DNA of 27,285 nt from a virus (lineage: Duplodnaviria > Heunggongvirae > Uroviricota > Caudoviricetes). The notes below the pieces were generated by a model, which was given only the letters and a program-made list of their open reading frames with translations, had not been told where the DNA came from and did no database searches. Below are positions 9,051 through 27,285 of this stretch, piece after piece. Position 1 is the stretch's first letter, and every line of letters starts with the position of its first letter. The stretch is from IMG/VR virus record IMGVR_UViG_2724679238_000012, positions 1 to 27,285 of that record; one strand, given 5' to 3'. A program made the position numbers and the translations under genes.

Positions 9051-12000
9051 CTATATTTTTCCGCCTACGCCTTTAAACTTCTCAATAAACGAGACGATTT
9101 TCTGGAAAACTGCCTGTTTTTTCGTTTTATATTGCGGATTTAACGGACTAAGTTTTGGTAATGTTTCGTTTAATTCTGTGCCATTTTCGGTGGCATATTC
9201 GCGTTTTAAAGACGTGCGAATATAGCGTTTTGCTGCCTCTTCATTGAGATTTTCTTCTTTTATCAATGCTTCTGCTTCACGTTGCTGTTCGCGTTGAGCA
9301 AACGTAAAGAATGCGTCAATGATGCTGGCTTTGTCCGGTAAATCATCCAGGTTCGTTTGCTGAATAAAATCGACCACCAGGCCCTCTTTAGCACGGTTCC
9401 CTAGGCTTGAACGAATTAAGCGTTTGACCTCTTCGATCATTTCGCCCTTGCCTTTATTTTGTCTGTTGTGTTCGAAAATCAGTCCAAGGATATAATCCAG
9501 GTTTATTTCCTGAGACTTCAGCAAATCGACCTCAAAAACTACGTCATCCCAGTCAGTGGTTGATTTCTCTTTTTTCTCAGCTTCTTTCTCACGGCGCTGC
9601 CAGTCGCGAATATCGTTATAGGCAGAACGATAATCCTGAATCTTGCGATCAGCAGGGAGACGAATTGTTTGCAATTCAGCGAACTTTTCATCATCCACAT
9701 AATGTTCTGCTTTGAATTTTTCTACCGCAACAGGATCGCTAAGATCGATTTGTTGCAGGGCTTTTAGCGTGGCAAATTCATCATAGTTTTGCAGGATGTT
9801 CTCGGCACGCAGGTATTCGCCAAACAGTTTAACGAAGTCTTTCTTCTCTTTTTCACTTTCAATACTGGTAGGGTCAGGGAACCGTTGTTCCAGTTCTGAA
9901 ACTACTGTCATGAAGCCGCGTTTAGCTTCACCAGTAGCAGCATCAGTAAAGCCTTCCATATACTCTGTATAACTCTTTTCTAACACCACATTTTTGGTGT
10001 TTTTGTCACCAAACAGCGTTATGGCATCAATAGTTGAGCGTTCCAGATCCCGAAAAGTGACGATATTACCGAAGGTTTTAGTTGCATCATAAATACGGTT
10101 GGTGCGGGAAAATGCCTGCATCAGGCCGTGAAAACGCAAGTTTTTATCGACGAATAGCGTGTTCAATGTTGGAGCGTCGAAGCCGGTTAAAAACATCCCA
10201 ACGACAATTAACAGATCGATATCCTGATTTTTAACCCGTTGGGCTAAATCACGATAGTAGTTCTGAAAACCGTTACTGTCGGTGCTAAAGTTAGTTTTAA
10301 AATGGCTGTTATATTCACGAATTGCAGCGTCCAGAAACTCTTTAGCACTGCTGTCCATTGCGCTGGTATCAAAAGTTTCATCGGAAATTTCACCAATGGC
10401 ATTTTGTTCTTCATTGGCGGCAAAGGAGAAGATTGTCGCAATACGCAGCGGTTTATAGGTAGCCGATTTATTAGCGGCTTCTTCTTGTAACCGTTTAAAC
10501 GTCGCATAATAGGCTTTCGCGGCATCCACGCTGCTCACTGCCAACATAGCATTAAAACCTTTTGAGCCAGGGAAGGTACGATGGGTTTTCTGGCGGAAAT
10601 TATTCAGAATATATTGCGTGATTTCCTGAATACGCATGGGATGAAGAAACGCCTGCTGATTTTCAGCCGCACTCAGTTTTTTCTCGTCAGTTTCTGTCTC
10701 TAAAGACTTAAACTGTGGCCGCACATCGTTGTAGTCCACCTTGAATTTGAGCACTTTTTCGTCACGAATCGCATCGGTAATTACATACGAATGCAATTCA
10801 CGACCAAATACGCTGGCGGTTGTTTCTGAGCCTAAGGCGTTTTCCGGGAAAATAGGGGTGCCGGTAAAACCAAACTGATAATAGCGTTTGAATTTCTTCT
10901 TCAGGTTTTTCTGAGCTTCTCCAAACTGGCTGCGGTGGCATTCATCAAATATAAACACCACTTGCTGATTATATACAGGCAGGTCGCTTTCTGCTTTCAT
11001 CAGGTTATTGAGTTTCTGAATAGTAGTGACGATAATTTTGTTATCGTCCTTATCCAGATTTCGTTTAAGGCCTGCGGTATTTTCCGAGCCGTTGACGCTG
11101 TCTGGCGAAAAACGCTGATATTCCTTCATGGTCTGGTAATCGAGGTCTTTCCTGTCGACCACAAAGAAAACTTTATCAATAAAGTCCAGTTCTGTTGCCA
11201 GACGCGCGGCTTTAAAGCTGGTCAGGGTTTTACCGGAACCCGTGGTGTGCCAGATATACCCACCGCTTTCCGGTTTTGACCAGTTCTTCGCTGTAAAGGA
11301 GCTCTTAATTTTCCACAGAATGCGCTCGGTGGCGGCAATCTGGTACGGTCGCATCACCAGTAGCGTCTGACTACTGTCAAAAACGCTGTAGTTCACCAGA
11401 ACATTCAGCAGAGTATGTTTCTGGAAAAAGGTAGCGGTAAAGTCTTTGAGGTCTTTAATCAGCGTGTTGTCTGATTTCGCCCAATTCATGGTGAAGTCAA
11501 AACTGTTTTTATCGCGCTTTGTCGTGTTGGCAAAATAACGGGTATCGGTGCCGTTAGAAATGACAAACAGTTGCAGATACTTAAACAGGGAATTTTCGCT
11601 GTTAAAACTCTCTTTACTGTAACGATGTATCTGGTTGAAAGCCTCACGAATCGCCACCCCGCGTTTTTTTAGTTCGATTTGCACCAGCGGTAAACCATTA
11701 ACCAGGATCGTGACGTCATAACGGTTAGCATGAGAACCCGTCTGTTCAAACTGCTGGATAATCTGCACCTTATTGCGCATGAGATTCTTTTTATCTATCA
11801 AATAGATGTTCTCAAGTCGCTCGTCATCAAAAATAAAGTCGCAAATATAGTCGATATGGATTTTACGGGTCTTATCCAGAATGCCATCGCTCGGGTTGTC
11901 CAGATACTGCTCCGTGAAACGCCGCCACTCGCTGTCATTAAACACCACACCATTGAGGCTCTGAAGCTGTTGTCGAACATTGGCCAGCATCGCCGACTGA

Positions 12001-12212
12001 GATTTTACGGATATAAATTCATAGCCCTGATTTCGCAGGTCCTGAATCAGTTCCTGTTCCAGGTCCGATTCGCTCTGGTAGCTGTCGCCTGTTGGCTCAG
12101 CTTTGATGTACTTATCAAGGACGATAAAGTTATTGGATTCAGCAATGGTGTGTGTTTGATGAGTCATAGCGCATCCTTTGTGCCGTCTGGCAAGGGCCGG
12201 AAGTTCCGGCAC
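9051..12212 (-). CDS. hsdR: Type I restriction enzyme R subunit (HsdR), helicase/endonuclease
   Basis: 1053-aa ORF with Walker A HTTGSGKT and DEAD/DECH box FIFDECH; size and position after hsdM-hsdS. Confidence 0.9.
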
Positions 12213-12273
12213 TTAAAAAATAGTCTATATACAGACCGGATGTTAAGGTGGCCCGGTCGGTAGCAATGGTCAA

Positions 12274-13509
12274 TTAATTACTGACAGTATCAGGTTTCGG
12301 GAAACTGAACAGTAAATCACGATAGTACTCGTATTGTTTCTGGCGCAACTCGATTTCACGCGGGAGCCCCTCGGTGATGGAGTTGGTCAGAGTATCGAAT
12401 TTGTCGAGTATTTCGACAATGCGAGCTTGCCAGGTGAGTGGCGGTACAGGGATTGGGTATTTTATTATATCCTCTTTACTGCCACGCGGCATTTTTGCTC
12501 CTTTAGCATGCTGCATGTTGTATTCAAAGAATTTGTCATCTGCCAAAATATGATATAGATATCTGGTATTTATTGAGCTATCTATACAACGAATAACCAA
12601 TACATCACCATTTGTTCCACCGATACAATCTGCTTGCCAAATTTTTTTCAAATATGGGCGGATATTCCCAATCAGTATATCGTTAGGTATAAACTCTGTT
12701 AATTTACCTGATGTCGGCACATGATTAGATAATGATTTTCCTGCTCTGTTTTGCAGCAGATTATCTACGCCAACATAATTCCTTTTATCAAGTAGTTCGA
12801 AACTAATTTTTGTTTTCGAGTATTGAGCTGCTTCTCCCAAAGTTTTCCACTCAACCTCGCCCTCTTTAAAACTCAACAACTGCTCGCGATAGTAGTTGTA
12901 CTGTTTTTTACGCATGTTAAGCTCTGCTGTCAGCTCTGCTGTCAGGGCGCTGAATGTGTCCAGAATCCGAACGATTTCAGACTGAATGGCAAGGGATTTT
13001 TCCGGATTTTCCGGACAGGGGATAGGGATAATAATTTTCGCCATATCCGATGCAGACACATCAATTACTTTAGTTCCCTTGGAGTATTTCCTTTTCTCAT
13101 TTGCAAAAGAATCCGTTTGCGTGAAATAGGCAAAGTATTTCCCAATAATAGTGCTATTTGGCTTGAAAATAGTTGCATGGCCACCAGTAACAGCTTGCTC
13201 TTTACCTAGATAAACAAGCGCCTTACCAACATCAGTAAAATTTTCGCTTGTGTTAGTAATAACAACATCACCAGAGTTAACCTTTTTAAGCTTCTTCGCC
13301 GTTTCATGGGAAACAAATGACTTTGTTGTTTCAGTAGATAATCCGTAAAAAGTATATATCTGACCATAGTGTATGGCAGGAACCCCTGATTCGGTAAAAT
13401 CAGACTTAGGCAATCCATTTCCACGAACTAATTCACCTAGTTTCCCCAATGGCAACCACTCAACCTCAACCCCATCCGGCAATTTTTCCAGATAACTCAA
13501 CTCGCTCAT
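12274..13509 (-). CDS. hsdS: Type I restriction-modification specificity subunit (HsdS), two target-recognition domains
   Basis: 411-aa ORF; conserved central and C-terminal repeats ([24 protein letters not shown] and [20 protein letters not shown]); ATGA overlap with hsdM. Confidence 0.85.
12921..12944. repeat. Two tandem copies of a 12-bp repeat (gctctgctgtca) encoding TAEL-TAEL in the HsdS central conserved region
   Basis: Seen directly in sequence and in the HsdS translation; the EcoR124I/II family is known to differ by copy number of this repeat. Confidence 0.8.
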
Positions 13510-15068
13510 TTCGGCACCTCGCAGCCTTCAATTTCAGCCACAATCGCATCAATATCTTTACGCAACTGGTCGATTTTGCTGACCGTGGTTTTCAGTTCTG
13601 CATTCAACTCAGCGATATCGATAATTTCGCGAGTATCTTTCGCTTCCACATAGCTGCTCACCGACAGGTTATAGTCATTAGCGACAACAGCCTCAAACGT
13701 GACAGATTTTGCCAGATGAGCAACATCTTCCTTGCTGGAAAATACCTGCATAATTTTTTCGATATGGGCATCGGTCAGGATGTTGTTGTTAGTCTCTTTT
13801 TTGAACAGTTCGCTGGCGTCAATAAACTGAACGTTGGTATCCGTTTTATGTTTAGACAGCACCAGAATATTTACGGCAATGGTGGTGCCAAAGAACAGGT
13901 TCGGTGCCAGTGAAATCACGGTTTCGACATAGTTATTGTCGACCAGATACTGACGGATTTTCTGCTCTGCGCCGCCACGGTAAAAAATACCCGGGAAGCA
14001 GACAATCGCAGCACGACCTTTGGCCGAAAGATAGTTCAGCGCATGTAATACAAACGCAAAGTCAGCTTTGGATTTGGGGGCCAGAACGCCAGCTGGGGCA
14101 AAACGCTCATCGTTAATCAGCGTCGGGTCATCGCTGCCAATCCATTTCACCGAATACGGCGGGTTAGAGACGATGGCATCAAACGGTTTTTCATCTCTGA
14201 AGTGCGGTTCAGTCAGCGTATTGCCCAGCTTGATATCAAACTTGTCGTAGTTGATGTTGTGCAAAAACATGTTCATACGTGCCAGGTTATAGGTCGTATG
14301 GTTGATTTCCTGTCCGAAAAAGCCTTCTTCAATGATATGGTTATCAAACTGCTTTTTAGCCTGCAACAACAGCGAACCGGAACCCGCGGCCGGGTCGTAG
14401 ATTTTGTTAACGTGGGTCTGCCCGTGCATAGCCAGTTGTGCAATCAGCTTGGAGACGTGCTGCGGTGTAAAGAACTCACCGCCTGACTTACCGGCATTTG
14501 CCGCATAGTTAGAAATCAGGAACTCATAGGCATCACCGAACAGGTCAATCTGATGTTCATTGAAGTCACCAAGGTTTAACCCTTCGACCCCTTTCAGAAC
14601 CGCAGCCAGGCGGGCATTTTTATCCTTAACGGTGTTACCCAGGCGGTTACTGGTTGTATCAAAATCAGCAAACAAACCTTTGATGTCAGCTTCTGAAGGG
14701 TAACCGTAAGCAGAGCTTTCGATAGCAACGAAGATACTATTTAAATCTGCATTCAGTCTGTCATTGGTATTTGCTTTCGCCGCTACGTTGCAGAAAAGCT
14801 GACTGGGGTAGATGAAGTAGCCTTTGGTTCTGATGGCATCGTCTTTAATGTCATCAGTAATAATGCCGTCATCAAGTGCCGCATAACAGATGCTGTCATC
14901 ACCATTTTCCATATAACTGGAAAAATTTTCGCTGATAAAACGGTAGAAAAGTGCGCCCAGAACGTATTGCTTAAAATCCCATCCATCGACCGAACCCCTG
15001 ACATCGTTAGCAATTTGCCAGATTTGACGATGAAGCTCTGCACGTTGTTGAATACTTGTCATTTTCAT
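13506..15068 (-). CDS. hsdM: Type I RM N6-adenine DNA methyltransferase subunit (HsdM)
   Basis: 520-aa ORF; motif [11 protein letters not shown] and motif IV NPPY (NPPYSVKW). Confidence 0.9.
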
Positions 15069-17189: not shown

Positions 17190-17657
17190 ATGTTACTTAA
17201 CTGGCAGGGACGCCACTTCATGGAAATAAATCACTCACGAATAACATCGTACGAGATTGCGGATTACATGATCCGCACTAAATCTCTTCTATCAGCGAAA
17301 GAACTCGCAGCAATTCTTGAAAAGGAATACCCGCATCTGGATGTCGATAAGCGCGATGTTTATCTGCGCTTAAAGGCTATCGCTGTGTCTAAGCATTCGT
17401 CTGTTTTGATTGATGACAGTACACGCCCACGTAGATTTCAGATCCACTCTCTGAATCCTGAATTCTTTCGCCGCAGCCGCGCTCCGCGCCGGTTTGATGA
17501 AAAACTCCAGAACGAACTCTATATGACGCAGGACGAAAAGGAACGCCGGGAGCACCAGCCTTGGGTGATGGCGCGTCAACTTTTCAATAAGGTGGTCCGT
17601 CAGCACCGTCATTACCCAGTGCGCCGTAAAGCCCCTTCCTTCCGGTCGGGGATATAA
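17190..17657 (+). CDS. lpa: Probable Lpa (late promoter activator) by position; start may be the Met at 17220
   Basis: 155-aa basic protein between the pdc genes and pacA as in the P1 gene order; a weak C1-operator-like site (aaattgccctaatgtattg) lies upstream at about 17103-17119. Sequence identity to Lpa not verifiable from memory. Confidence 0.45.
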   Translation: MLLNWQGRHFMEINHSRITSYEIADYMIRTKSLLSAKELAAILEKEYPHLDVDKRDVYLRLKAIAVSKHSSVLIDDSTRPRRFQIHSLNPEFFRRSRAPRRFDEKLQNELYMTQDEKERREHQPWVMARQLFNKVVRQHRHYPVRRKAPSFRSGI

Positions 17658-17659
17658 GG

Positions 17660-18960
17660 CGCGGTTTTCCACCTGGCTTTTTTTGTTTAAAATAGTGGGA
17701 TGAAACGACTACAAGCATTTAAATTCCAGTTAAGACCAGGTGGTCAACAGGAGCGTCAAATGAGGCGCTTTGCCGGAGCTTGTCGTTTCGTTTTCAATCG
17801 TGCCCTGGCACTTCAGAATGAGAATCATGAAGCCGGGAACAAATATATTCATTATGCAAAGATGACTTCCTGGCTGGTTGAATGGAAAAATGCTACTGAA
17901 ACGCAATGGCTTAAAGATTCGCCATCACAGCCATTGCAACAGTCACTGAAAGACCTTGAGCGGGCTTACAAAAACTTCTTCCAGAATCGGGCTGCTTTTC
18001 CCCGATTCAAAAAGCGGGGACAGAATGATGCATTCCGCTACCCGCAGGGCGTTAAGCTCGATCAGGAAAACAGCCGTATTTTTCTGCCGAAACTTGGCTG
18101 GATGCGCTACCGGAACAGCCGTCAAGTCACGGGCGTTGTGAAAAATGTCACGGTCAGCCAGTCCTGCGGTAAGTGGTACATCAGTATTCAGACAGAAAGT
18201 GAAGTATCAACTCCGGTTCACCCTTCAGCATCAATGGTCGGGCTGGATGCTGGCGTGGCTAAACTCGCCACGCTGTCAGATGGCACAGTCTTTGAGCCTG
18301 TAAACAGTTTTCAGAAAAACCAGAAGACGCTGGCGAGACTTCAGCGGCAGTTAAGCCGCAAGGTCAAATTCAGCAATAACTGGCAGAAGCAGAAACGCAA
18401 AATACAGCGACTGCATTTCCGTATCGCAAATATCCGCAGGGACTACCTTCACAAAGTCACAACGACCGTCAGCAAAAACCACGCAATGATTGTCATTGAG
18501 GATTTGAAGGTTAAAAACATGGCAAAGTCAGCAGCGGGTACGGTCAGCCAGCCGGGGCGCAATGTCCGGACAAAATCAGGTTTAAACCGTTCGATACTGG
18601 ATCAGGGCTGGTATGAAATGCGCCGCCAGCTTGAGTACAAGCAGCTCTGGCGTGGCGGTCAGGTACTGGCTGTTCCGCCAGCGTACACAAGCCAGCGTTG
18701 CGCGTGCTGTGGTCATACAGCGAAAGAAAATCGCCTGTCACAAAGTAAATTCAGATGCCAGGTATGTGGATATACAGCGAACGCCGATGTAAATGGCGCT
18801 CGTAACATTTTAGCGGCGGGGCACGCCGTACTTGCCTGTAGAGGGATGGTGCAGTCAGGCCGCCCGTTGAAGCAGGAACCAGACGCTGAGCAATCAGCCG
18901 TCACCCGCTAATGGGAATCCCCCTCCTGAGTCACGAAGTGCGACGGTGGGGGAGGATGTC
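17660..18960 (+). mobile_element. Probable IS200/IS605-family element remnant carrying tnpB only (no tnpA), with imperfect hairpin just 3' of tnpB
   Basis: No HuH/Y1 transposase ORF adjacent; imperfect inverted repeat atccccctcct...ggtgggggaggat at 18917-18957 immediately after the tnpB stop. Boundaries are approximate. Confidence 0.4.
17700..18911 (+). CDS. tnpB: IS200/IS605-family TnpB (OrfB) RNA-guided nuclease-like protein
   Basis: 403-aa ORF; Ruv[17 protein letters not shown], Ruv[14 protein letters not shown], zinc finger CACCGH...CQVCGY, Ruv[14 protein letters not shown]; resembles E. coli IS609-type InsQ. Confidence 0.85.
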
Positions 18961-18976
18961 AAGAAAGGAAGCATAA

Positions 18977-20170
18977 GTGACCTGGGACGATCACAAGAAG
19001 AATTTTGCTCGCCTGGCGCGAGATGGTGGTTACACCATCGCACAATATGCCGCCGAGTTTAATCTCAACCCAAACACCGCACGTCGTTATCTCCGTGCCT
19101 TCAAAGAAGACACCAGGACTGCGGACAGCCGCAAGCCAAATAAGCCAGTCAGGAAGCCACTAAAAAGCATGATCATTGATCACTCTAATGATCAACATGC
19201 AGGTGATCATATTGCGGCTGAAATAGCGGAAAAACAAAGAGTTAATGCCGTTGTCAGTGCCGCAGTCGAGAATGCGAAGCGCCAAAATAAGCGCATAAAT
19301 GATCGTTCAGATGATCATGACGTGATCACCCGCGCCCACCGGACCTTACGTGATCGCCTGGAACGCGACACCCTGGATGATGATGGTGAACGCTTTGAAT
19401 TCGAAGCTGGCGATTACCTGATAGATAACGTTGAAGCGCGGAAGGCCGCGCGCGCTATGTTGCGTCGGTCCGGGGCCGATGTTCTGGAAACCACTCTTCT
19501 TGAAAAGTCTCTTTCTCATCTCCTTATGCTGGAGAACGCCAGGGATACGTGTATTCGCCTGGTGCAGGAAATGCGCGATCAGCAAAAAGACGATGATGAA
19601 GGTACTCCGCCTGAATACCGTATCGCGAGCATGCTAAACAGCTGTTCCGCGCAGATAAGCAGCCTGATCAACACCATTTACAGCATCCGGAATAACTATC
19701 GAAAAGAAAGCCGGGAGGCGGAAAAGCACGCTTTGTCTATGGGGCAAGCTGGCATTGTTAAGCTGGCATACGAACGAAAGCGTGAAAATAACTGGTCAGT
19801 GCTGGAAGCAGCTGAATTCATCGAGGCGCATGGCGGGAAAGTGCCGCCCCTGATGCTGGAGCAAATCAAAGCCGATCTGCGTGCTCCTAAGACCAATACC
19901 GATGATGAGGAAAACCAAACAGCATCTGGCGCTCCATCACTTGAAGATCTGGATAAAATCGCGCGAGAACGGGCCGCCAGCCGCCGCGCTGATGCCGCAT
20001 TGTGGATTGAGCAACGTAGAGAAGAAATTGCCGATATCGTCGATACAGGTGGTTATGGTGATGTCGATGCGGAAGGCATATCAAACGAAGCATGGCTTGA
20101 ACAGGATCTGGACGAAGACGAGGAGGAAGACGAAGAAGTTACCCGCAAACTGTACGGGGATGATGATTAA
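18977..20170 (+). CDS. pacA: PacA, terminase small subunit (pac-recognition component)
   Basis: 397-aa product with GTG start; contains the pac site; size and sequence consistent with P1 PacA. Confidence 0.9.
19168..19330. other. pac packaging site: 4 + 3 clustered TGATCA-type hexamers (7 GATC Dam sites) flanking the cleavage region
   Basis: GATC at 19171, 19178, 19190, 19205 and at 19301, 19313, 19324, all in TGATCA/TGATCG context, inside pacA. Confidence 0.85.
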
Positions 20171-21654
20171 TGGCCAGAAGTTGCGTAACGGACCCACGTT
20201 GGCGCGAGCTGGTGGCGCTATATCGTTATGACTGGATTGCGGCCGCTGATGTGTTGTTTGGGAAGACACCAACCTGGCAGCAGGATGAGATCATTGAGTC
20301 CACGCAGCAGGACGGCAGTTGGACAAGTGTGACCTCCGGCCATGGTACTGGTAAGTCGGATATGACGAGTATCATTGCAATACTCTTCATCATGTTTTTC
20401 CCCGGCGCTCGCGTTATTCTGGTCGCTAACAAAAGACAGCAAGTCCTTGATGGTATTTTCAAATACATAAAGAGCAATTGGGCTACTGCTGTTAGCAGAT
20501 TCCCGTGGTTGTCGAAGTATTTCATTCTTACAGAAACGTCTTTTTTTGAGGTGACTGGCAAGGGTGTTTGGACAATATTGATAAAGTCCTGTCGCCCCGG
20601 AAATGAGGAGGCGTTGGCTGGTGAACACGCCGATCATCTCTTGTATATCATCGACGAAGCGTCGGGTGTGAGTGATAAAGCATTCAGTGTGATAACAGGT
20701 GCGCTGACCGGTAAGGATAACCGTATTCTGCTTCTTTCCCAGCCTACGCGACCTTCAGGCTATTTCTACGATTCACACCACAGACTAGCTATTCGCCCGG
20801 GAAATCCTGATGGATTGTTTACTGCGATAATACTGAATAGTGAAGAATCTCCGCTTGTAGATGCAAAATTTATACGAGCAAAACTTGCGGAGTATGGCGG
20901 TCGTGATAACCCCATGTACATGATCAAAGTACGTGGTGAATTTCCCAAATCTCAAGATGGCTTTCTTCTTGGTCGTGATGAGGTTGAGCGGGCGACGCGG
21001 CGAAAGGTCAAGATTGCCAAAGGATGGGGCTGGGTTGCATGTGTTGACGTTGCTGGTGGCACAGGACGAGATAAGTCCGTTATTAATATCATGATGGTGT
21101 CCGGCCAGCGAAATAAACGCCGTGTAATCAACTATCGTATGCTGGAATACACAGACGTTACAGAAACGCAGTTAGCCGCCAAGATTTTCGCAGAATGTAA
21201 CCCAGAACGGTTCCCGAACATAACCATAGCTATTGATGGCGATGGCTTAGGGAAATCGACGGCTGATCTGATGTACGAACGCTATGGTATTACCGTCCAG
21301 CGTATCCGCTGGGGGAAAAAGATGCACAGCCGTGAAGATAAAAGCCTTTATTTCGATATGCGCGCTTTCGCGAATATTCAGGCGGCAGAAGCTGTAAAAT
21401 CAGGGCGTATGCGGCTTGATAAGGGGGCTGCGACTATAGAGGAAGCATCAAAGATACCGGTAGGGATAAATTCCGCAGGTCAATGGAAGGTGATGTCAAA
21501 GGAAGATATGAAGAAAAAACTCAACCTGCACTCACCGGACCATTGGGATACATATTGTTTCGCTATGTTGGCGAACTATGTTCCCCAAGATGAAGTGCTT
21601 AGCGTCGAAGACGAAGCGCAGGTTGATGAAGCTCTGGCATGGCTTAATGAGTGA
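20170..21654 (+). CDS. pacB: PacB, terminase large subunit
   Basis: 494-aa ORF whose ATG overlaps the pacA stop (TAATG); size matches P1 PacB. Confidence 0.9.
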
Positions 21655-21657
21655 AAA

Positions 21658-21674
21658 CTTGCTCTAATAAATTG
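21658..21674 (+). promoter_or_regulatory. C1 operator (CTTGCTCTAATAAATTG, 15/17) just after pacB
   Basis: Seen 4 nt after the pacB stop, followed by TTGACT. Confidence 0.6.
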
Positions 21675-21806
21675 TGTTTTTTGACTACCGATGTTACATT
21701 GAACCTGACCTCTTGCGCCTTGAGGCATTTTCGGTTTATGCTTATCAGGCACCTCATTAAAACGGGTGCCGGGATTGAGACCCCGGATAATGTCAAAGGC
21801 GACACA

Positions 21807-21829
21807 GACGCCGAAAGCGTCTTTTTTTT
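21807..21829 (+). terminator. Rho-independent terminator (gacgc-cgaaa-gcgtc + T8)
   Basis: 5-bp GC stem, 5-nt loop, then tttttttt on the plus strand. Confidence 0.5.
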
Positions 21830-21869
21830 GTGTCATGCCATCGCACAGCCATACGTAGCGTTTAGCTCC

Positions 21870-21995
21870 GAGATCAATGGTAGTGCTGGCTGGGCTGCCG
21901 AAAGGCAGGCCGGTTCCCTTTGACGCCGGTAGTCTCAACCCAGTCAGTGCTACCGCCATTGAGATTGAGACCTCACGCGGTAGCTCCTTAACTTA
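21870..21995 (+). ncRNA. Candidate c4-like antisense RNA / structured regulatory leader upstream of the icd-like ORF
   Basis: GNRA-loop hairpin ctgcc-gaaa-ggcag; ctaccg can pair with upstream cggtag or downstream gcggtag; loop gtctcaacc is complementary to attgagac, which occurs in loops at about 21772 and 21965. Boundaries and strand are a guess. Confidence 0.3.
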
Positions 21996-22014
21996 GTCAA
22001 AGGAGGCTGCCATT

Positions 22015-22236
22015 ATGGCTACTATCCCTACCCCAACTCATCCTGAATTTATCTGGCGCTTTTACTCCTGCCAGAAACGTCACTATCACTTCGTTATCGC
22101 AACAACAGAAGATGAGGCTCGCTCTCAGCTTCCGGATGCTCCCTGCATTTTCTCTGCCCGTTTTTCCACTGATTTGTGCAATTCTCTCAGTTACTGGTGT
22201 CTCCCTGTTAACGCTTCTGCTCAGGAGGGACTATGA
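22015..22236 (+). CDS. 73-aa Icd-like small protein, translationally coupled to ant
   Basis: Strong RBS AAAGGAGG; stop overlaps ant ATG (ATGA); same length and arrangement as P1 icd, but sequence identity not verifiable from memory. Confidence 0.45.
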   Translation: MATIPTPTHPEFIWRFYSCQKRHYHFVIATTEDEARSQLPDAPCIFSARFSTDLCNSLSYWCLPVNASAQEGL

Positions 22237-23348
22237 GAACGTCATTAGTCACCCGTGAAGAGATGATCGAGGCAATTGAACAGCATACCGCCTGTATCAG
22301 TACCAGGGATATACCGGGCGTTATTGCCAACTATTTCATGATCACCAAACAACTTTACCGGAGAAAGGACAAGAACGCGGTTCACCGTATCCTGTTGTCT
22401 GATATCCGCGAATACCTGCTCGAACAGGGGCATCTGAATTACGCAACCATCGCAGCCGAAGCACGCAAGGAGGCACACAGAATGAAAGCAACTAACGTTA
22501 AATCAGAAAAAATTCATGCAACTTCAGTTCAGAAATCGGAGCTGGTGGTTGCTCAAAATCAGCCGGATGAAATTCCCGTTCTGGAGTGGCAGGGGGTGCG
22601 TGTAGTGACAACCGAGACTCTTGCTAAAGGGTATGGGACAGAAACAATCCGTATTCGCCAGAATCATCATGAGAACAAAGTGCGCTTTGTTGAAGGGAAG
22701 CACTTTTTCAAGGTTATTGGCGATGAGCTGAAAAATTTGCGGGTAGCTTTAAACTACTCACAAAATCCAGTCTCACCCAAAGCCCGCTCACTCACTCTCT
22801 GGACAGAACGCGGCGCTGCCCGTCACGCTAAAATGCTCGAAACCGATCAGGCATGGGCATTCTTTGAAAAACTGGAAGACAGCTACTTCCGACAAAAAGA
22901 ACAGCAACCGATCGCAATCCCCCAGACGCTTCCAGAAGCCCTGCGTCTGGCTGCCGAACTGGCTGAACAAAAGCAACTTCTGGAACAGAAAGCCCACCAG
23001 CTAAATCAGCAGCTGGTGGCCGCCGCTCCTAAAGTCGATTTTGCCGACCGGGTATCAGTAGCTAAAGGGATCCTGATTGGGAATTTTGCAAAGGTTGTTG
23101 GACTTAAGCAAAACGCGCTGTTTGCCTGGTTACGGGAGAACGGCATCCTGATAGCGTCCGGTGGACGTAAAAATGTGCCGTTCCAGCAGTACATCAATGC
23201 GGGGTATTTCACGGTGAAAGAAGTGGTGCTGGATGATGAAGATGGCTACCAGATACGGTTGACGCCTCAATTAACGGGTAAAGGCCAGCAGTGGTTGACG
23301 CGTAAACTGCTCGATGCTGGCTTGTTAAAACCGGTGGCGGCTGAATAA
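22233..23348 (+). CDS. ant: Phage antirepressor (Ant-like), ORF6N/Bro-N-type N-terminal region plus KilAC-type C-terminal domain
   Basis: 371-aa ORF; VLEWQGVRVVTTETLAKGYG...NKVRFVEGKHFFKV resembles ORF6N; C-terminal IASGGRKNVPFQQYINAGYFTVKEVVLDDEDGYQIRLTPQLTGKGQQWL typical of KilAC antirepressor domain. Confidence 0.75.
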   Translation: MRTSLVTREEMIEAIEQHTACISTRDIPGVIANYFMITKQLYRRKDKNAVHRILLSDIREYLLEQGHLNYATIAAEARKEAHRMKATNVKSEKIHATSVQKSELVVAQNQPDEIPVLEWQGVRVVTTETLAKGYGTETIRIRQNHHENKVRFVEGKHFFKVIGDELKNLRVALNYSQNPVSPKARSLTLWTERGAARHAKMLETDQAWAFFEKLEDSYFRQKEQQPIAIPQTLPEALRLAAELAEQKQLLEQKAHQLNQQLVAAAPKVDFADRVSVAKGILIGNFAKVVGLKQNALFAWLRENGILIASGGRKNVPFQQYINAGYFTVKEVVLDDEDGYQIRLTPQLTGKGQQWLTRKLLDAGLLKPVAAE

Positions 23349-23355
23349 TGGAAGA

Positions 23356-23377
23356 ATGCCCGGTTGATGCCGGGCAT
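23356..23377. terminator. Bidirectional terminator between convergent ant and c1 (atgcccgg-ttgatg-ccgggcat)
   Basis: 8-bp perfect stem lying between the ant stop (23346-23348) and the c1 stop (23381-23383). Confidence 0.55.
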
Positions 23378-23380
23378 AAT

Positions 23381-24232
23381 TTATTGCGCGCTTTCGGGGT
23401 TGTCGTTTACTGGCTGCCCCTTCTTGGTTTTACGGCTGCGCGTAACTGATGCGGCTGACTTAACCTTTTTCTCTTCGCGAGTGATGGCAATTTGTTTTTT
23501 TACATTTTCAATATCTGCCAGGCGATATATTTTTGCTTGCGGCCAGCGGTCGCAGATGATCGGTTCTATGGAGTCATAAAGGCTAAATTTTGCTTTTTCG
23601 AATTCACCGTTGATGATAATTCCATCACGGAGAGTTTCATCGCAGATAAACACGCCACACAGTGGCACATGGTAACTAACTGATTTACCATCATTGTAGT
23701 TAGGGCTACTGGAAATGTAGTGGACGCGCAGCATTGTTTCGCTAAAGCCGTGTACGCGCATACGGAATTTTTCATCCTCCGGGTACTGCTTCATTAGCTC
23801 TTTTGTTGCTTCCAGGTTCTCTATGTATTTCGCACTGTGCTCATTGATCCCCGCGCTTTTTTGGATGCGAATGTCCTTATCAATCAGATGAATAATGCGG
23901 CCAGCGGTCATGTTGACGCTGTTCACAGCTTCTGTCTGATAAGTTGTAACCTTACGCACACCGCGAAGGATGTTAGGCACTGGATATAAAATAGTCTTTG
24001 GGATATTGAGGTCTGGGTACTGTTCCAGTTCCCGCGCCATTAAAGTCCATTTATCAATTTCAGCCTGAATGCTGTCAGTTTCTTTGAACGGTAGAACGAC
24101 AACCGGGCGTACAGGACGACCGTCGCTGGCTGTATCAACGTGTTGGGCGCGTGCAACAGCTTTTTTTAGAAAGAGATCCCTGAAGCTGACGAACTCCTGG
24201 TACAGTTGTTCGCCGTAGACATAATTTATCAT
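23381..24232 (-). CDS. c1: C1 repressor (master repressor of lysogeny)
   Basis: 283-aa product MINYVYGEQLYQEFVSFRDLFLKKAVARAQHVD... recognised as P1 C1. Confidence 0.95.
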   Translation of the reverse strand: MINYVYGEQLYQEFVSFRDLFLKKAVARAQHVDTASDGRPVRPVVVLPFKETDSIQAEIDKWTLMARELEQYPDLNIPKTILYPVPNILRGVRKVTTYQTEAVNSVNMTAGRIIHLIDKDIRIQKSAGINEHSAKYIENLEATKELMKQYPEDEKFRMRVHGFSETMLRVHYISSSPNYNDGKSVSYHVPLCGVFICDETLRDGIIINGEFEKAKFSLYDSIEPIICDRWPQAKIYRLADIENVKKQIAITREEKKVKSAASVTRSRKTKKGQPVNDNPESAQ

Positions 24233-24326
24233 TGATCCTCCTCCAGAATTGACATGGTCAATAACGCCCGGCTGAGAAAACCGGTCATTACTGACCTATA
24301 TTATAGAGGGATCAAACAAAAATAAT

Positions 24327-24343
24327 AGATTTATTAGTGCATT
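24327..24343 (-). promoter_or_regulatory. C1-operator-like site between coi and c1 (Op99a/b position), 14/17
   Basis: agatttattagtgcatt compared to the reverse complement of the consensus; overlaps the coi stop. Confidence 0.4.
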
Positions 24344-24552
24344 TATTGTGAGTCTAACTGGTTAGTTGCCATGAGATATTCGATTGTGTCAGTGAGGTCA
24401 TCCAGGTCGTCTTGGGTGATGCGGTACTCCTGATTGGATATCTTTGAGTAGTGTTCAGCAATGGCGCGGGCAGCGTCGGTTTCGGCAGGGTCTACAGATA
24501 AAGCGTTAGAGCAATGTCTAACGTCGTCGATGGTTGGTTGAATGAAAGCCAT
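24343..24552 (-). CDS. coi: Coi (C1 inactivator)
   Basis: 69-aa ORF directly upstream of c1 on the same strand; size and position match P1 Coi. Confidence 0.85.
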   Translation of the reverse strand: MAFIQPTIDDVRHCSNALSVDPAETDAARAIAEHYSKISNQEYRITQDDLDDLTDTIEYLMATNQLDSQ

Positions 24553-24790
24553 AATTATGCCTCACTGTATTGACAACACAGAGCCTGAAGCTCTGACCTA
24601 CTGTTTCACCCATGATCCATGCTGGGGTAATCTAACAACATTGCGCTGTGTGTAAGATGAGCAATGCATAGCTGTAATGCCGTTGTATAAGGTTTCCCTG
24701 TTTGCTCATTTCCTTCTGAGCCGCTCTACAACGCTGAAGACACATTAAATAGTGAATCCAAAGTCGTATTACGTAACGGCGGCAAAACTA

Positions 24791-24807
24791 TAATTTATTA
24801 GAGCAAT
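24791..24807 (-). promoter_or_regulatory. C1 operator (reverse complement ATTGCTCTAATAAATTA, 16/17), Op99 cluster
   Basis: Seen in sequence upstream of coi. Confidence 0.7.
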
Positions 24808-24873
24808 TGTCAAACAACTATGAAAAACAATCCAGTTTTTGGCTGGTGGAGTGGGATTTTTCTCTCAAAATTT

Positions 24874-24890
24874 ATTGCTCTAATAATTCT
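24874..24890 (+). promoter_or_regulatory. C1 operator (ATTGCTCTAATAATTCT), Op99 cluster, 44 bp from loxP
   Basis: Seen in sequence; followed by the same TTGATTTTTA element as the operator at 8786. Confidence 0.6.
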
Positions 24891-24933
24891 TGATTTTTAT
24901 GCGCAGCTGGACGTAAACTCCTCTTCAGACCTA

Positions 24934-24967
24934 ATAACTTCGTATAGCATACATTATACGAAGTTAT
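24934..24967. other. loxP: loxP site (ATAACTTCGTATA-GCATACAT-TATACGAAGTTAT)
   Basis: Exact 34-bp canonical loxP: two 13-bp inverted repeats around the 8-bp asymmetric spacer. Confidence 0.98.
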
Positions 24968-24986
24968 CTTAAGGGTTATTGAACAT

Positions 24987-25059
24987 GATCAATTTACCTG
25001 TAAATCCATACAGTTCAATACCTTATCAGGTCAAATAGTGATCACTTGATCATTTGATC
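24987..25059. promoter_or_regulatory. Cluster of four GATC (Dam) sites in TGATCA context within the cre promoter region
   Basis: GATC at 24987, 25040, 25048, 25056; P1 cre promoters are reported to be Dam-methylation sensitive (from memory). Confidence 0.6.
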
Positions 25060-25385
25060 AAGGTTGCGCTACGTAAAATCTGCGAAATGTTGGCAGTGTT
25101 AGTGCTCCAGATTTCGCGTAGCGCACTTAGCACCACCAATCAATCAGAGGTGAAAAATGGGATATTCAACTGCTAAAGTGTCCACTCATCTTGAGCTTGA
25201 GAAAAACCGTGGTTACTGGCGGGCAAAAGGGTTTGATCGTGATAGTAGTCAACTGTCATTATCGCGCGGTGAAGAGAAAATAGAACGCACGCGCGGTCGC
25301 TGGCGTTTCTATGACGAGAACCATAAACAGGTAAAGGCAGAGCCGATCCTGTACACTTTACTTAAAACCATTATCTGAGTGTTAG

Positions 25386-26417
25386 ATGTCCAATTTACTG
25401 ACCGTACACCAAAATTTGCCTGCATTACCGGTCGATGCAACGAGTGATGAGGTTCGCAAGAACCTGATGGACATGTTCAGGGATCGCCAGGCGTTTTCTG
25501 AGCATACCTGGAAAATGCTTCTGTCCGTTTGCCGGTCATGGGCGGCATGGTGCAAGTTGAATAACCGGAAATGGTTTCCCGCAGAACCTGAAGATGTTCG
25601 CGATTATCTTCTATATCTTCAGGCGCGCGGTCTGGCAGTAAAAACTATCCAGCAACATTTGGGCCAGCTAAACATGCTTCATCGTCGGTCCGGGCTGCCG
25701 CGACCAAGTGACAGCAATGCTGTTTCACTGGTTATGCGGCGGATCCGAAAAGAAAACGTTGATGCCGGTGAACGTGCAAAACAGGCATTGGCGTTCGAAC
25801 GCACTGATTTCGACCAGGTTCGTTCACTCATGGAAAATAGCGATCGCTGCCAGGATATACGGAATCTGGCATTTCTGGGAATTGCTTATAACACCCTGTT
25901 ACGTATAGCCGAAATTGCCAGGATCAGGGTTAAAGATATCTCACGTACTGACGGTGGGAGAATGTTAATCCATATTGGCAGAACGAAAACGCTGGTTAGC
26001 ACCGCAGGTGTAGAGAAGGCACTTAGCCTGGGGGTAACTAAACTGGTCGAGCGATGGATTTCTGTCTCTGGTGTAGCTGATGATCCGAATAACTACCTGT
26101 TTTGCCGGGTCAGAAAAAATGGTGTTGCCGCGCCATCATCCACCAGCCAGCTATCAACTCGCGCCCTGGAAGGGATTTTTGAAGCAATTCACCGATTGAT
26201 TTACGGGGCTAAGGATGACTCTGGCCAGAGGTACCTGGCCTGGTCTGGACACAGTGCCCGTGTCGGAGCCGCGCGAGATATGGCCCGCGCCGGAGTTTCA
26301 ATACCGGAGATCATGCAAGCTGGTGGCTGGACCAACGTAAATATTGTCATGAACTATATCCGTAATCTGGATAGTGAAACGGGGGCAATGGTGCGCCTGC
26401 TGGAAGATGGTGATTAG
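25386..26417 (+). CDS. cre: Cre site-specific tyrosine recombinase
   Basis: 343-aa product MSNLLTVHQNLPALPVDATSDEVRKNLMDMFRDRQAFSEHTWKMLLSVCRSWAAWCKLNNRKWFPAEPEDVRDYLLYLQARGLAVKTIQQHLGQLNMLHRRSGLPRPSDSNAVSLVMRRIRKENVDAGERAKQALAFERTDFDQVRSLMENSDRCQDIRNLAFLGIAYNTLLRIAEIARIRVKDISRTDGGRMLIHIGRTKTLVSTAGVEKALSLGVTKLVERWISVSGVADDPNNYLFCRVRKNGVAAPSSTSQLSTRALEGIFEAIHRLIYGAKDDSGQRYLAWSGHSARVGAARDMARAGVSIPEIMQAGGWTNVNIVMNYIRNLDSETGAMVRLLEDGD recognised as Cre; starts 436 bp from the loxP centre. Confidence 0.97.
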   Translation: MSNLLTVHQNLPALPVDATSDEVRKNLMDMFRDRQAFSEHTWKMLLSVCRSWAAWCKLNNRKWFPAEPEDVRDYLLYLQARGLAVKTIQQHLGQLNMLHRRSGLPRPSDSNAVSLVMRRIRKENVDAGERAKQALAFERTDFDQVRSLMENSDRCQDIRNLAFLGIAYNTLLRIAEIARIRVKDISRTDGGRMLIHIGRTKTLVSTAGVEKALSLGVTKLVERWISVSGVADDPNNYLFCRVRKNGVAAPSSTSQLSTRALEGIFEAIHRLIYGAKDDSGQRYLAWSGHSARVGAARDMARAGVSIPEIMQAGGWTNVNIVMNYIRNLDSETGAMVRLLEDGD

Positions 26418-26434
26418 CCGTCAATGCATAGGAA

Positions 26435-26451
26435 ATTGCTCTAATTGTTTG
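26435..26451 (+). promoter_or_regulatory. C1-operator-like site downstream of cre (ATTGCTCTAATTGTTTG, 12/17; Op2 position)
   Basis: First 11 bp match the consensus; located 18 nt after the cre stop and upstream of the next ORF. Confidence 0.5.
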
Positions 26452-26467
26452 ATATTTATGGTGGCAT

Positions 26468-26779
26468 ATGAGAAAGGATTTCAACATCGACGGAAAATAT
26501 GTAGTGCTGTCTGTAAGCACTAATATTCAGTCGCCAGCCGTCATTGTCACTGTAAAGTTGAGCGATAGAATGCCTGATATTGACTCAATATCTGTTGCGT
26601 TCCCTGTCAAAAGTATGCGTAGTGCTGAACATTTCGTGATGAATGCCACCGAGGAAGAAGCACGGCGCGGTTTTGCTAAAGTGATGTCTGAGTTTGGCGA
26701 ACTCTTGGGTAAGGTTAACAATGTCCTTTCAATCAGTTCAGCAAGGTTCAAAGCGTTAACAGCTTCCATGATGAAATAA
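26468..26779 (+). CDS. Small hypothetical protein at the position of P1 cra (identity unverified)
   Basis: 103-aa ORF immediately downstream of cre and an operator-like site. Confidence 0.45.
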   Translation: MRKDFNIDGKYVVLSVSTNIQSPAVIVTVKLSDRMPDIDSISVAFPVKSMRSAEHFVMNATEEEARRGFAKVMSEFGELLGKVNNVLSISSARFKALTASMMK

Positions 26780-26996
26780 AAAAAAGCCTGGCAAGTAGCC
26801 AGGCTGCACAAAAAAGCGGGTTTGTATTCCGCATCCAATCAATCAAGAAGGAGTATAGCACACAGGTGCCGAAGTGAAAGAATGTGATTCTCGATAAAAA
26901 AATAAAAAATGCCATTGTTCTAATTTATTGTTATAATTAAGCGATGGCATTAGTCAACTACGAAGACATGGCCATTGCCTGCTTCTTGAAATCATT

Positions 26997-27020
26997 GGCG
27001 GCCTAAAGGCCGCCTTTTTT
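26997..27020 (+). terminator. Rho-independent terminator (ggcggcc-taaa-ggccgcc + T6)
   Basis: Perfect 7-bp GC stem, tetraloop, tttttt. Confidence 0.65.
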
Positions 27021-27022
27021 AA

Positions 27023-27285
27023 TCATTCAGCCGCCACCGGTTTTAACAAGCCAGCTTCGAGCAGTTTACGCGTCAACCACTGTTGGCCTTTCCCAGTTAG
27101 CTGGGGCGTCAGCCGTATCTGGTAGCCATCTTCATCATCCAGCACCACTTCTTTCACTGTGAAATATCCGGCGTTTATGTACTGCTGGAACGGCACATTT
27201 TTACGTCCACCGGACGCAATCAGGGGGTTCGCGCCCATTTCCTCTAAAAGTCTCACCTTGCTTAGGTAATTAATTGAATTTATTT
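27023..27285 (-). CDS. Second antirepressor-like gene, KilAC C-terminal domain only in window (5' part lies beyond the right edge)
   Basis: C-terminal 60 aa nearly identical to the C-terminus of the 22233..23348 Ant protein (one E/D difference); the reading frame stays open upstream of the track's start through to the window end. Confidence 0.6.
   Translation of the reverse strand, partial: INSINYLSKVRLLEEMGANPLIASGGRKNVPFQQYINAGYFTVKEVVLDDEDGYQIRLTPQLTGKGQQWLTRKLLEAGLLKPVAAE

Follow-up and report, generated by a model that had tools for sequence, protein, structure and literature searches.

Evidence that a Tn3-family transposon cut the second antirepressor gene downstream of c8 in a P1-like phage-plasmid

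Introduction

The antirepressors Ant1 and Ant2 of phage P1 are annotated as antagonising C1 by complex formation. Transposons of the Tn3 family carry terminal inverted repeats (IRs) of about 38 bp that begin with GGGG and generate 5-bp target duplications, and insertions that truncate genes are routine for this family. Among P1-like elements, an insertion of ant between pacB and c1 has been described for pTZ20_1P and RCS47, and the interval between c8 and mat is a variable, AT-rich hot-spot close to the site of Tn2 in phage P7 (PMC6906374).

Here we describe a locus at which these subjects meet. It lies at the right edge of a 27,285-nucleotide stretch of viral DNA (IMG/VR record IMGVR_UViG_2724679238_000012, positions 1 to 27,285), which we call the window. 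A minus-strand open reading frame (ORF) at this edge ends almost exactly like an antirepressor encoded about 4 kb away in the same window, and its upstream part diverges. The first-pass annotation, made from the sequence alone, took this pattern as a sign of domain shuffling or recombination between two antirepressor paralogs.

Results

The ORF layout and BLAST searches against annotated phages identify the window as a segment of a P1-like phage-plasmid. Its right part carries pacA (18977-20170), pacB (20170-21654), c1 (23381-24232, minus strand), coi (24343-24552, minus strand), cra (25157-25378), cre (25386-26417) and c8 (26468-26779, plus strand; 103 aa, putative lysogeny establishment). 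The edge ORF had been said to follow a "cre-cra block"; the gene between cre and the stump is in fact c8, and cra lies upstream of cre, as it also does in P1. E. albertii and E. coli have P1-like plasmids that are collinear with positions 18900-27222 (8.3 kb) at 95-97% identity, and among these collinear plasmids the records that name KilAC antirepressors in their annotation carry two in that stretch.

Two further elements lie to the left of this region. The minus strand of 9051-15068 encodes a complete type I restriction-modification system with hsdR (1053 aa, EcoR124-type C-terminus), hsdS (411 aa) and hsdM (520 aa). We know of no type I restriction-modification system at the corresponding position of P1, and the system is probably cargo. 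Just upstream of pacA, an IS200/IS605-type element (17190-18911) comprises a 155-aa ORF (17190-17657) followed by a 403-aa TnpB with OrfB_IS605 and Cas12f1-like TNB domains; it may correspond to IS609, which has been reported in other P1-like plasmids (PMC6906374).

At precisely the position of ref in P1, the window carries a second Ant-type locus, which is on the opposite strand. The expectation that ref belongs at this position in P1 and has been replaced here was borne out by the comparison, in which reference P1 has ref and the homology of the window stops before it. This homology runs through c8, Oref, the ref promoters and a hairpin and ends at P1 nucleotide 2069, that is, at the hairpin and 8 bp before the ref start codon (ATG at 2077); behind the Oref/Pref region, the ref coding sequence is absent from the window. 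The C1 operator Oref is retained at 26914-26930 (ATTGTTCTAATTTATTG), with one C-to-T change relative to P1 and E. albertii. It overlaps a retained P2ref-type promoter on the plus strand (26909..26937; promoter-like match 10/12, with TG), and the P1 annotation places the two at 1962-1978 (Oref) and 1957-1985 (P2ref). In place of ref, this promoter now reads towards the hairpin and, beyond it, the 3' terminus of the ant remnant.

The hairpin itself is GC-rich and followed by a T-run (GGCGGCC-TAAA-GGCCGCC-TTTTTT; 26997..27019, plus strand, with the hairpin at 26997-27014 and the T-run to 27019). In a three-way alignment of the window, P1 and E. albertii the structure is conserved, and in P1 it immediately precedes the ref ATG. 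In the window it forms the left boundary of the ref-to-ant replacement and lies 3 nt from the ant stop codon. It resembles a terminator only when read on the plus strand; on the minus strand the nearest site of this kind is that of c8 (26805-26785).

The intact paralog, Ant (22233..23348, plus strand; 371 aa), has a P1 Ant1-like N-terminus, an ORF6N domain (residues 116-201) and a KilAC domain (259-360; Pfam), and its gene closes a complete immI-type module inserted between pacB and c1. The plus strand of this module carries an isrK-like RNA (21749-21827; Rfam RF01394, 60.2 bits) and a C4 antisense RNA (21873-21960; RF01695, 75.4 bits), followed by an icd-like ORF of 73 aa (22015-22236) that overlaps the start of ant. 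C4, icd and ant are all complete, and the sequence type of C4 differs from that of P1 c4. The same module is found in phage RCS47.

At the right edge, the minus-strand frame with its TGA stop at 27023-27025 reads INSINYLSKVRLLEEMGANPLIASGGRKNVPFQQ...LLKPVAAE* and its translation ends ...LIASGGRKNVPFQQYINAGYFTVKEVVLDDEDGYQIRLTPQLTGKGQQWLTRKLLEAGLLKPVAAE*, the Ant-like part extending from LIASGG to the end. Alignment of the two Ant-like sequences upheld the reported similarity, matching the 66 residues coded by 27026-27223 to Ant residues 306-371 with 65 of 66 identical (BLASTP, E = 6e-46), and located the reported upstream divergence as an abrupt break at 27222-27224. This similarity is far beyond chance. 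In DNA, 184 of 198 nt are identical, and the 14 differences consist of 13 synonymous changes and one conservative Glu/Asp change, a synonymous excess that shows two old paralogs shaped by purifying selection and not a fresh duplication. A repeat search recovers the same relationship as a 236-nt inverted repeat (23147-23382 / 26989-27224; 88% complementary), the only long repeat within 21500-27285. Neither a recent duplication of the in-window Ant within the genome nor gene conversion by it explains the similarity, given the 14/198 nt that differ and the position-specific markers that match the positional ortholog described below.

We delimit the 3' remnant of the second, post-c8 ant as 27023..27222 on the minus strand, comprising 66 codons and the TGA and coding for the C-terminal ~60% of KilAC (Pfam ANT). 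The KilAC profile (PF03374) is matched in the stump at positions 41-107 of 108 only (50.8 bits), compared with positions 2-106 (111 bits) in the intact paralog, and the domain is therefore incomplete. The stump lacks a start codon of its own as well as the N-terminal and ORF6N parts; where an Ant1-like N-terminus and ORF6N would share one started ORF with it, a transposon IR lies upstream of codon ~305. An in-frame GTG (27256) and ATG (27238) inside this IR leave ORFs of 77 and 71 codons formally open, and it is because of these codons that the ORF listing reported a 77-aa ORF.

The last 63 bases of the window, from 27223 onward, are the terminal inverted repeat and inner end of a ~3.9-kb Tn3-family transposon with the order IR-tnpR-res-tnpA-IR. 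The outer repeat, IRL, occupies 27223..27256 (GGGGGTTCGCGCCCATTTCCTCTAAAAGTCTCAC) and has the form of a Tn3-family terminal IR (~35-40 bp, GGGG start). Inner transposon sequence continues to the window end (27257..27285, minus strand) and includes the TAA stop (27280-27282) and last codon (27283-27285) of tnpR; positions 27280-27285 are all that the window holds of the Tn3 transposase and resolvase genes. The tnpR gene, whose stop was placed by mapping the p2RM9973 tnpR CDS (5062-5643, minus) to window 27280 onward, is transcribed towards the ant remnant and ends in a different frame from it.

Searched alone, 27222/27223-27285 matches several unrelated plasmids (IncF, IncK, P1-like and others) at 100% over 63-64 nt. 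A total of 143 records cover at least 80% of this transposon-end query at 80-100% identity, and where annotation is available the match directly abuts a gene named "recombinase family protein" at its 3' end, with a "Tn3 family transposase" beyond it. In two reference copies, including that of E. albertii p2RM9973, a pair of 34-nt IRs stands 3.83 kb apart, and window 27223-27256 is identical to the IRL arm of this pair. The p2RM9973 copy has TATTA on both flanks, a 5-bp target duplication, and its genes encode a TnpR with a Resolvase domain (PF00239, 131 bits) and a TnpA with DDE_Tnp_Tn3 (PF01526, 391 bits) and DUF4158. In that plasmid the same 3.9-kb transposon occupies 5005-8904, between a pef-type fimbrial cluster and a head-processing protein gene. 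Its presence at another site of another E. albertii P1-like plasmid shows that the transposon circulates and is active in the plasmid population.

In a five-way alignment, the window follows full-length ant to ...GCAATCA(GG) and then the transposon IRL from GGGGGTTCGCGCC, with the switch at GGGGG. Since G27223 and G27224 match ant and IR alike, the break point is ambiguous by 1-2 nt. The homology break coincides with the terminus of the IR, and what diverges upstream in the edge ORF is therefore DNA of the transposon. In the ANT profile the break corresponds to position ~41/108, inside KilAC and not at a domain boundary. A search for the other end of the transposon within the window found none.

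Full-length counterparts of the stump occupy the same position in relatives. A full-length Ant gene in inverted orientation (370 aa, with ORF6N and KilAC) takes the place of ref in 56 plasmids of PLSDB, from E. albertii and E. coli, and in 32 complete E. coli genomes, where it is annotated as "phage antirepressor KilAC domain-containing protein" or "Ant". In all of these records the match to the window runs from c8 (or from the Pref region) into the 3' end of ant and stops at exactly window position 27224. The proposed replacement of ref by Ant is thus real in the window but not special to it, being already annotated in these plasmids and genomes. The P1-type arrangement with ref is about nine times commoner, with 509 PLSDB records.

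The membership of the post-c8 ant in a c4-icd-ant module was followed in detail in one relative, E. albertii p06-3542 (NZ_CP034163.1). Here a 370-aa KilAC antirepressor (WP_124866778.1) is encoded on the minus strand between c8 and mat and is ~89% identical along its whole length to the first Ant of the window. The stump agrees with this protein in 66/66 aa and shares with its gene the position-specific nucleotides, the Glu codon and the TGA stop, unlike the pacB-side copy; these markers together with the residue identity make the stump the positional ortholog of the full-length gene. The retained part also has high identity to the C-terminus of P1 Ant1. Upstream of the post-c8 ant of p06-3542, on the same strand, Rfam detects a C4 RNA (70.7 bits) and a c4-a1b1 element (56.8 bits), which make this ant part of a second immI-type module, in inverted orientation. 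In that module icd is split over two frames (short ORFs at 7733-7885 and 7758-7892) and, from its reading frames, looks frameshifted or internally deleted.

Viewed as a whole, p06-3542 carries two c4-(icd)-ant modules (1474-2949 and 6624-8146), inverted with respect to each other, on either side of c1-coi-lox-cra-cre-c8. The C4 RNA of the post-c8 module is P1-type and that of the pacB-side module is of another type. The cra homolog of this plasmid (4758-4979; window 25157-25378) is labelled 'creatininase' by PGAP, evidently an annotation error for the small P1 Cra protein.

The junction between ant and the IR was sought in several collections. Neither the 37-mer nor the 24-mer across it had an exact match in GTDB representative genomes, an IR 42-mer had none in IMG/VR, and BLAST returned no junction-spanning record from PLSDB or complete E. 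coli genomes. In JGI metagenomes the junction 24-mer occurred in one contig, an unrelated plasmid with rep and toxin-antitoxin genes, in which the same transposon happens to be flanked by ATCA.

Discussion

We conclude with high confidence that the stump is the end of a real second ant gene, cut by the insertion of a Tn3-family transposon, and that it represents an ordinary disrupted gene. In a lineage common in E. albertii and E. coli, ref after cre-c8 has been replaced by an Ant1-type gene reading towards c8, and in this particular element a ~3.9-kb Tn3-family transposon has landed inside the KilAC-coding part, at about codon 305. If the insertion was a simple one, the far end of the transposon, with an IRR ending ...GCGCAGAACCCC, should be followed by a 5-bp target duplication and the missing 5' portion of ant. 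The window ends 63 bases into the transposon; the transposase, the second IR, the target duplication, the 5' portion of ant and the C4/icd region of this copy would all lie beyond 27285. Relative to its ortholog the stump has no frameshift, stop or amino acid change, and the insertion is therefore probably recent. Following the P1 paradigm, the intact gene would encode an antirepressor that is checked by C4 RNA and antagonises C1; this second antirepressor would have been lost, while the first Ant module (21749-23348) is intact.

Judged by its sequence, the stump is a non-functional pseudogene without a promoter, a C4/icd region, a start, the N-terminal and ORF6N domains or the first ~40 KilAC positions, and at least the transposon stands between it and any c4-icd control region. 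The earlier interpretation of domain shuffling between paralogs does not survive this result: the edge ORF is in effect a pseudogene fragment, its divergence starts at the outermost base of the Tn3 IR, inside KilAC, and its positional orthologs are full-length.

Simple insertion is favoured over a transposon-associated rearrangement, in which deletion, inversion or recombination between two copies removed or relocated the 5' part of ant, c4-icd and possibly mat and beyond. Such an event is unlikely but deserves serious consideration. Only one transposon end lies in the window, both Tn3-family elements and the c8-mat interval have been linked to rearrangements in P1-like plasmids (PMC6906374), and copies of the same transposon at other sites of related P1-like plasmids are substrates for recombination. 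However, no direct evidence points to a rearrangement, simple insertion with a 5-bp duplication is usual for the element, as in p2RM9973, and the undecayed stump fits a recent single event.

An assembly chimera, joining a P1-like plasmid to a transposon from elsewhere in the sample, appears very improbable. The junction occurs in none of the collections searched (PLSDB, complete E. coli genomes, GTDB representatives), as a chimera would have it, and if the window end is the contig end, the sequence stops just inside a multi-copy repeat, where short-read assemblies break. Yet a break just inside a repeat is equally expected for a genuine insertion, and the join coincides to the nucleotide with the outer end of the IR, the hallmark of transposition, whereas a chimera would be expected to join at an arbitrary internal position.

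We also considered whether read-through from tnpR might express the stump as a 71-77-aa KilAC fragment acting as a truncated or dominant-negative antirepressor. The tnpR gene points at the stump, the in-frame GTG and ATG are available, and no minus-strand terminator-like site was found between these starts and the stump. Against this, neither start has a convincing ribosome-binding site (the GAGG preceding the ATG is separated from it by just 2 nt), the domain is without its first ~40 positions, and the start codons are an accidental property of the IR that is common to all copies of the transposon. A meaningful product from expression of the stump is unlikely, and a functional fragment of this kind is extremely so.

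A functional second antirepressor whose N-terminal part was exchanged by domain shuffling around a common C-terminal domain has almost nothing left to recommend it: the Ant family is mosaic, with P1 Ant1 and the window Ant sharing both ends but not their middles and with an ORF6N region that varies between copies, but the break lies inside KilAC at the first base of the transposon IR, the 63 diverging bases recur at 100% identity in several unrelated plasmids, where they form the transposon's non-coding end, and the tnpR stop of another frame stands at 27280-27282. The modularity of the Ant family is real in general and does not explain the edge ORF.

With disruption by the transposon as the preferred reading, the edge ORF is correctly annotated as a transposon-truncated fragment of an ant pseudogene, and the last 63 bases as a Tn3-family IR. 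The ORF should not be reported as a new chimeric antirepressor and has little importance beyond annotation. It adds one more insertion to the c8-mat hot-spot of P1-like phage-plasmids. With one of its two Ant-type antirepressors probably lost, this phage-plasmid could show modestly altered induction or heteroimmunity.

The gene that was disrupted is itself already known, since dozens of RefSeq plasmids have a post-c8 KilAC antirepressor in their annotation. Likewise, the two inverted immI-type modules that flank immC-lox-cre are annotated in dozens of public plasmids and have hardly been discussed. The two inverted copies of ant in relatives, each longer than 1 kb, could mediate inversion of c1-coi-lox-cra-cre-c8. 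More speculatively, the second antirepressor in relatives might be under direct, C1-dependent convergent or antisense control via Oref/P2ref, which would create a feedback between immC and immI that is absent from P1. Because the minus-strand terminator lies only past Pref (26805-26785), the ant and Pref transcripts would converge in intact relatives. We consider this control improbable; if it were real, the transposon would have broken a C1-linked circuit in the window.

Compared with described systems, the locus combines known parts. The resemblance of the intact paralog and the full-length post-c8 orthologs to P1 Ant1 (61% identity overall) lies in the first ~95 residues and in the KilAC C-terminus, with ~86% identity in DNA across the final 335 nt, whereas the middle segment differs and is ORF6N in this lineage. 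As in the immI region of P1 Ant1/Ant2, the intact copy of the window is located downstream of a C4 RNA and after an intact 73-aa icd-like ORF, and the full-length post-c8 orthologs likewise lie downstream of a C4 RNA. In contrast to P1 immI, which is situated between sim and kilA, the post-c8 locus follows c8 and is inverted. The C-terminus of P1 Ant1 aligns to the 66 residues of the stump with few changes, but the window retains only these last 66 codons. Relative to P1 ref, which encodes a Ref-like RecA-filament endonuclease, the window keeps the upstream Oref, P2ref and hairpin at ~90% identity without the ref coding sequence.

Like other Tn3-family transposons, the element at the window edge has a terminal sequence that starts GGGG(G). 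It differs in that the copies examined have no passenger gene and carry only the PGAP label 'Tn3 family transposase', and 63 of its bases lie in the window. Tn2 of phage P7, also a member of the Tn3 family, is inserted near the same region. The closest counterparts are the post-c8 KilAC antirepressor loci of E. albertii and E. coli, which have the same position, strand, hairpin boundary and TGA stop as the stump and flanks 94-98.5% identical to the window; their ant is intact at 370 aa, whereas the window copy is cut at about codon 305.
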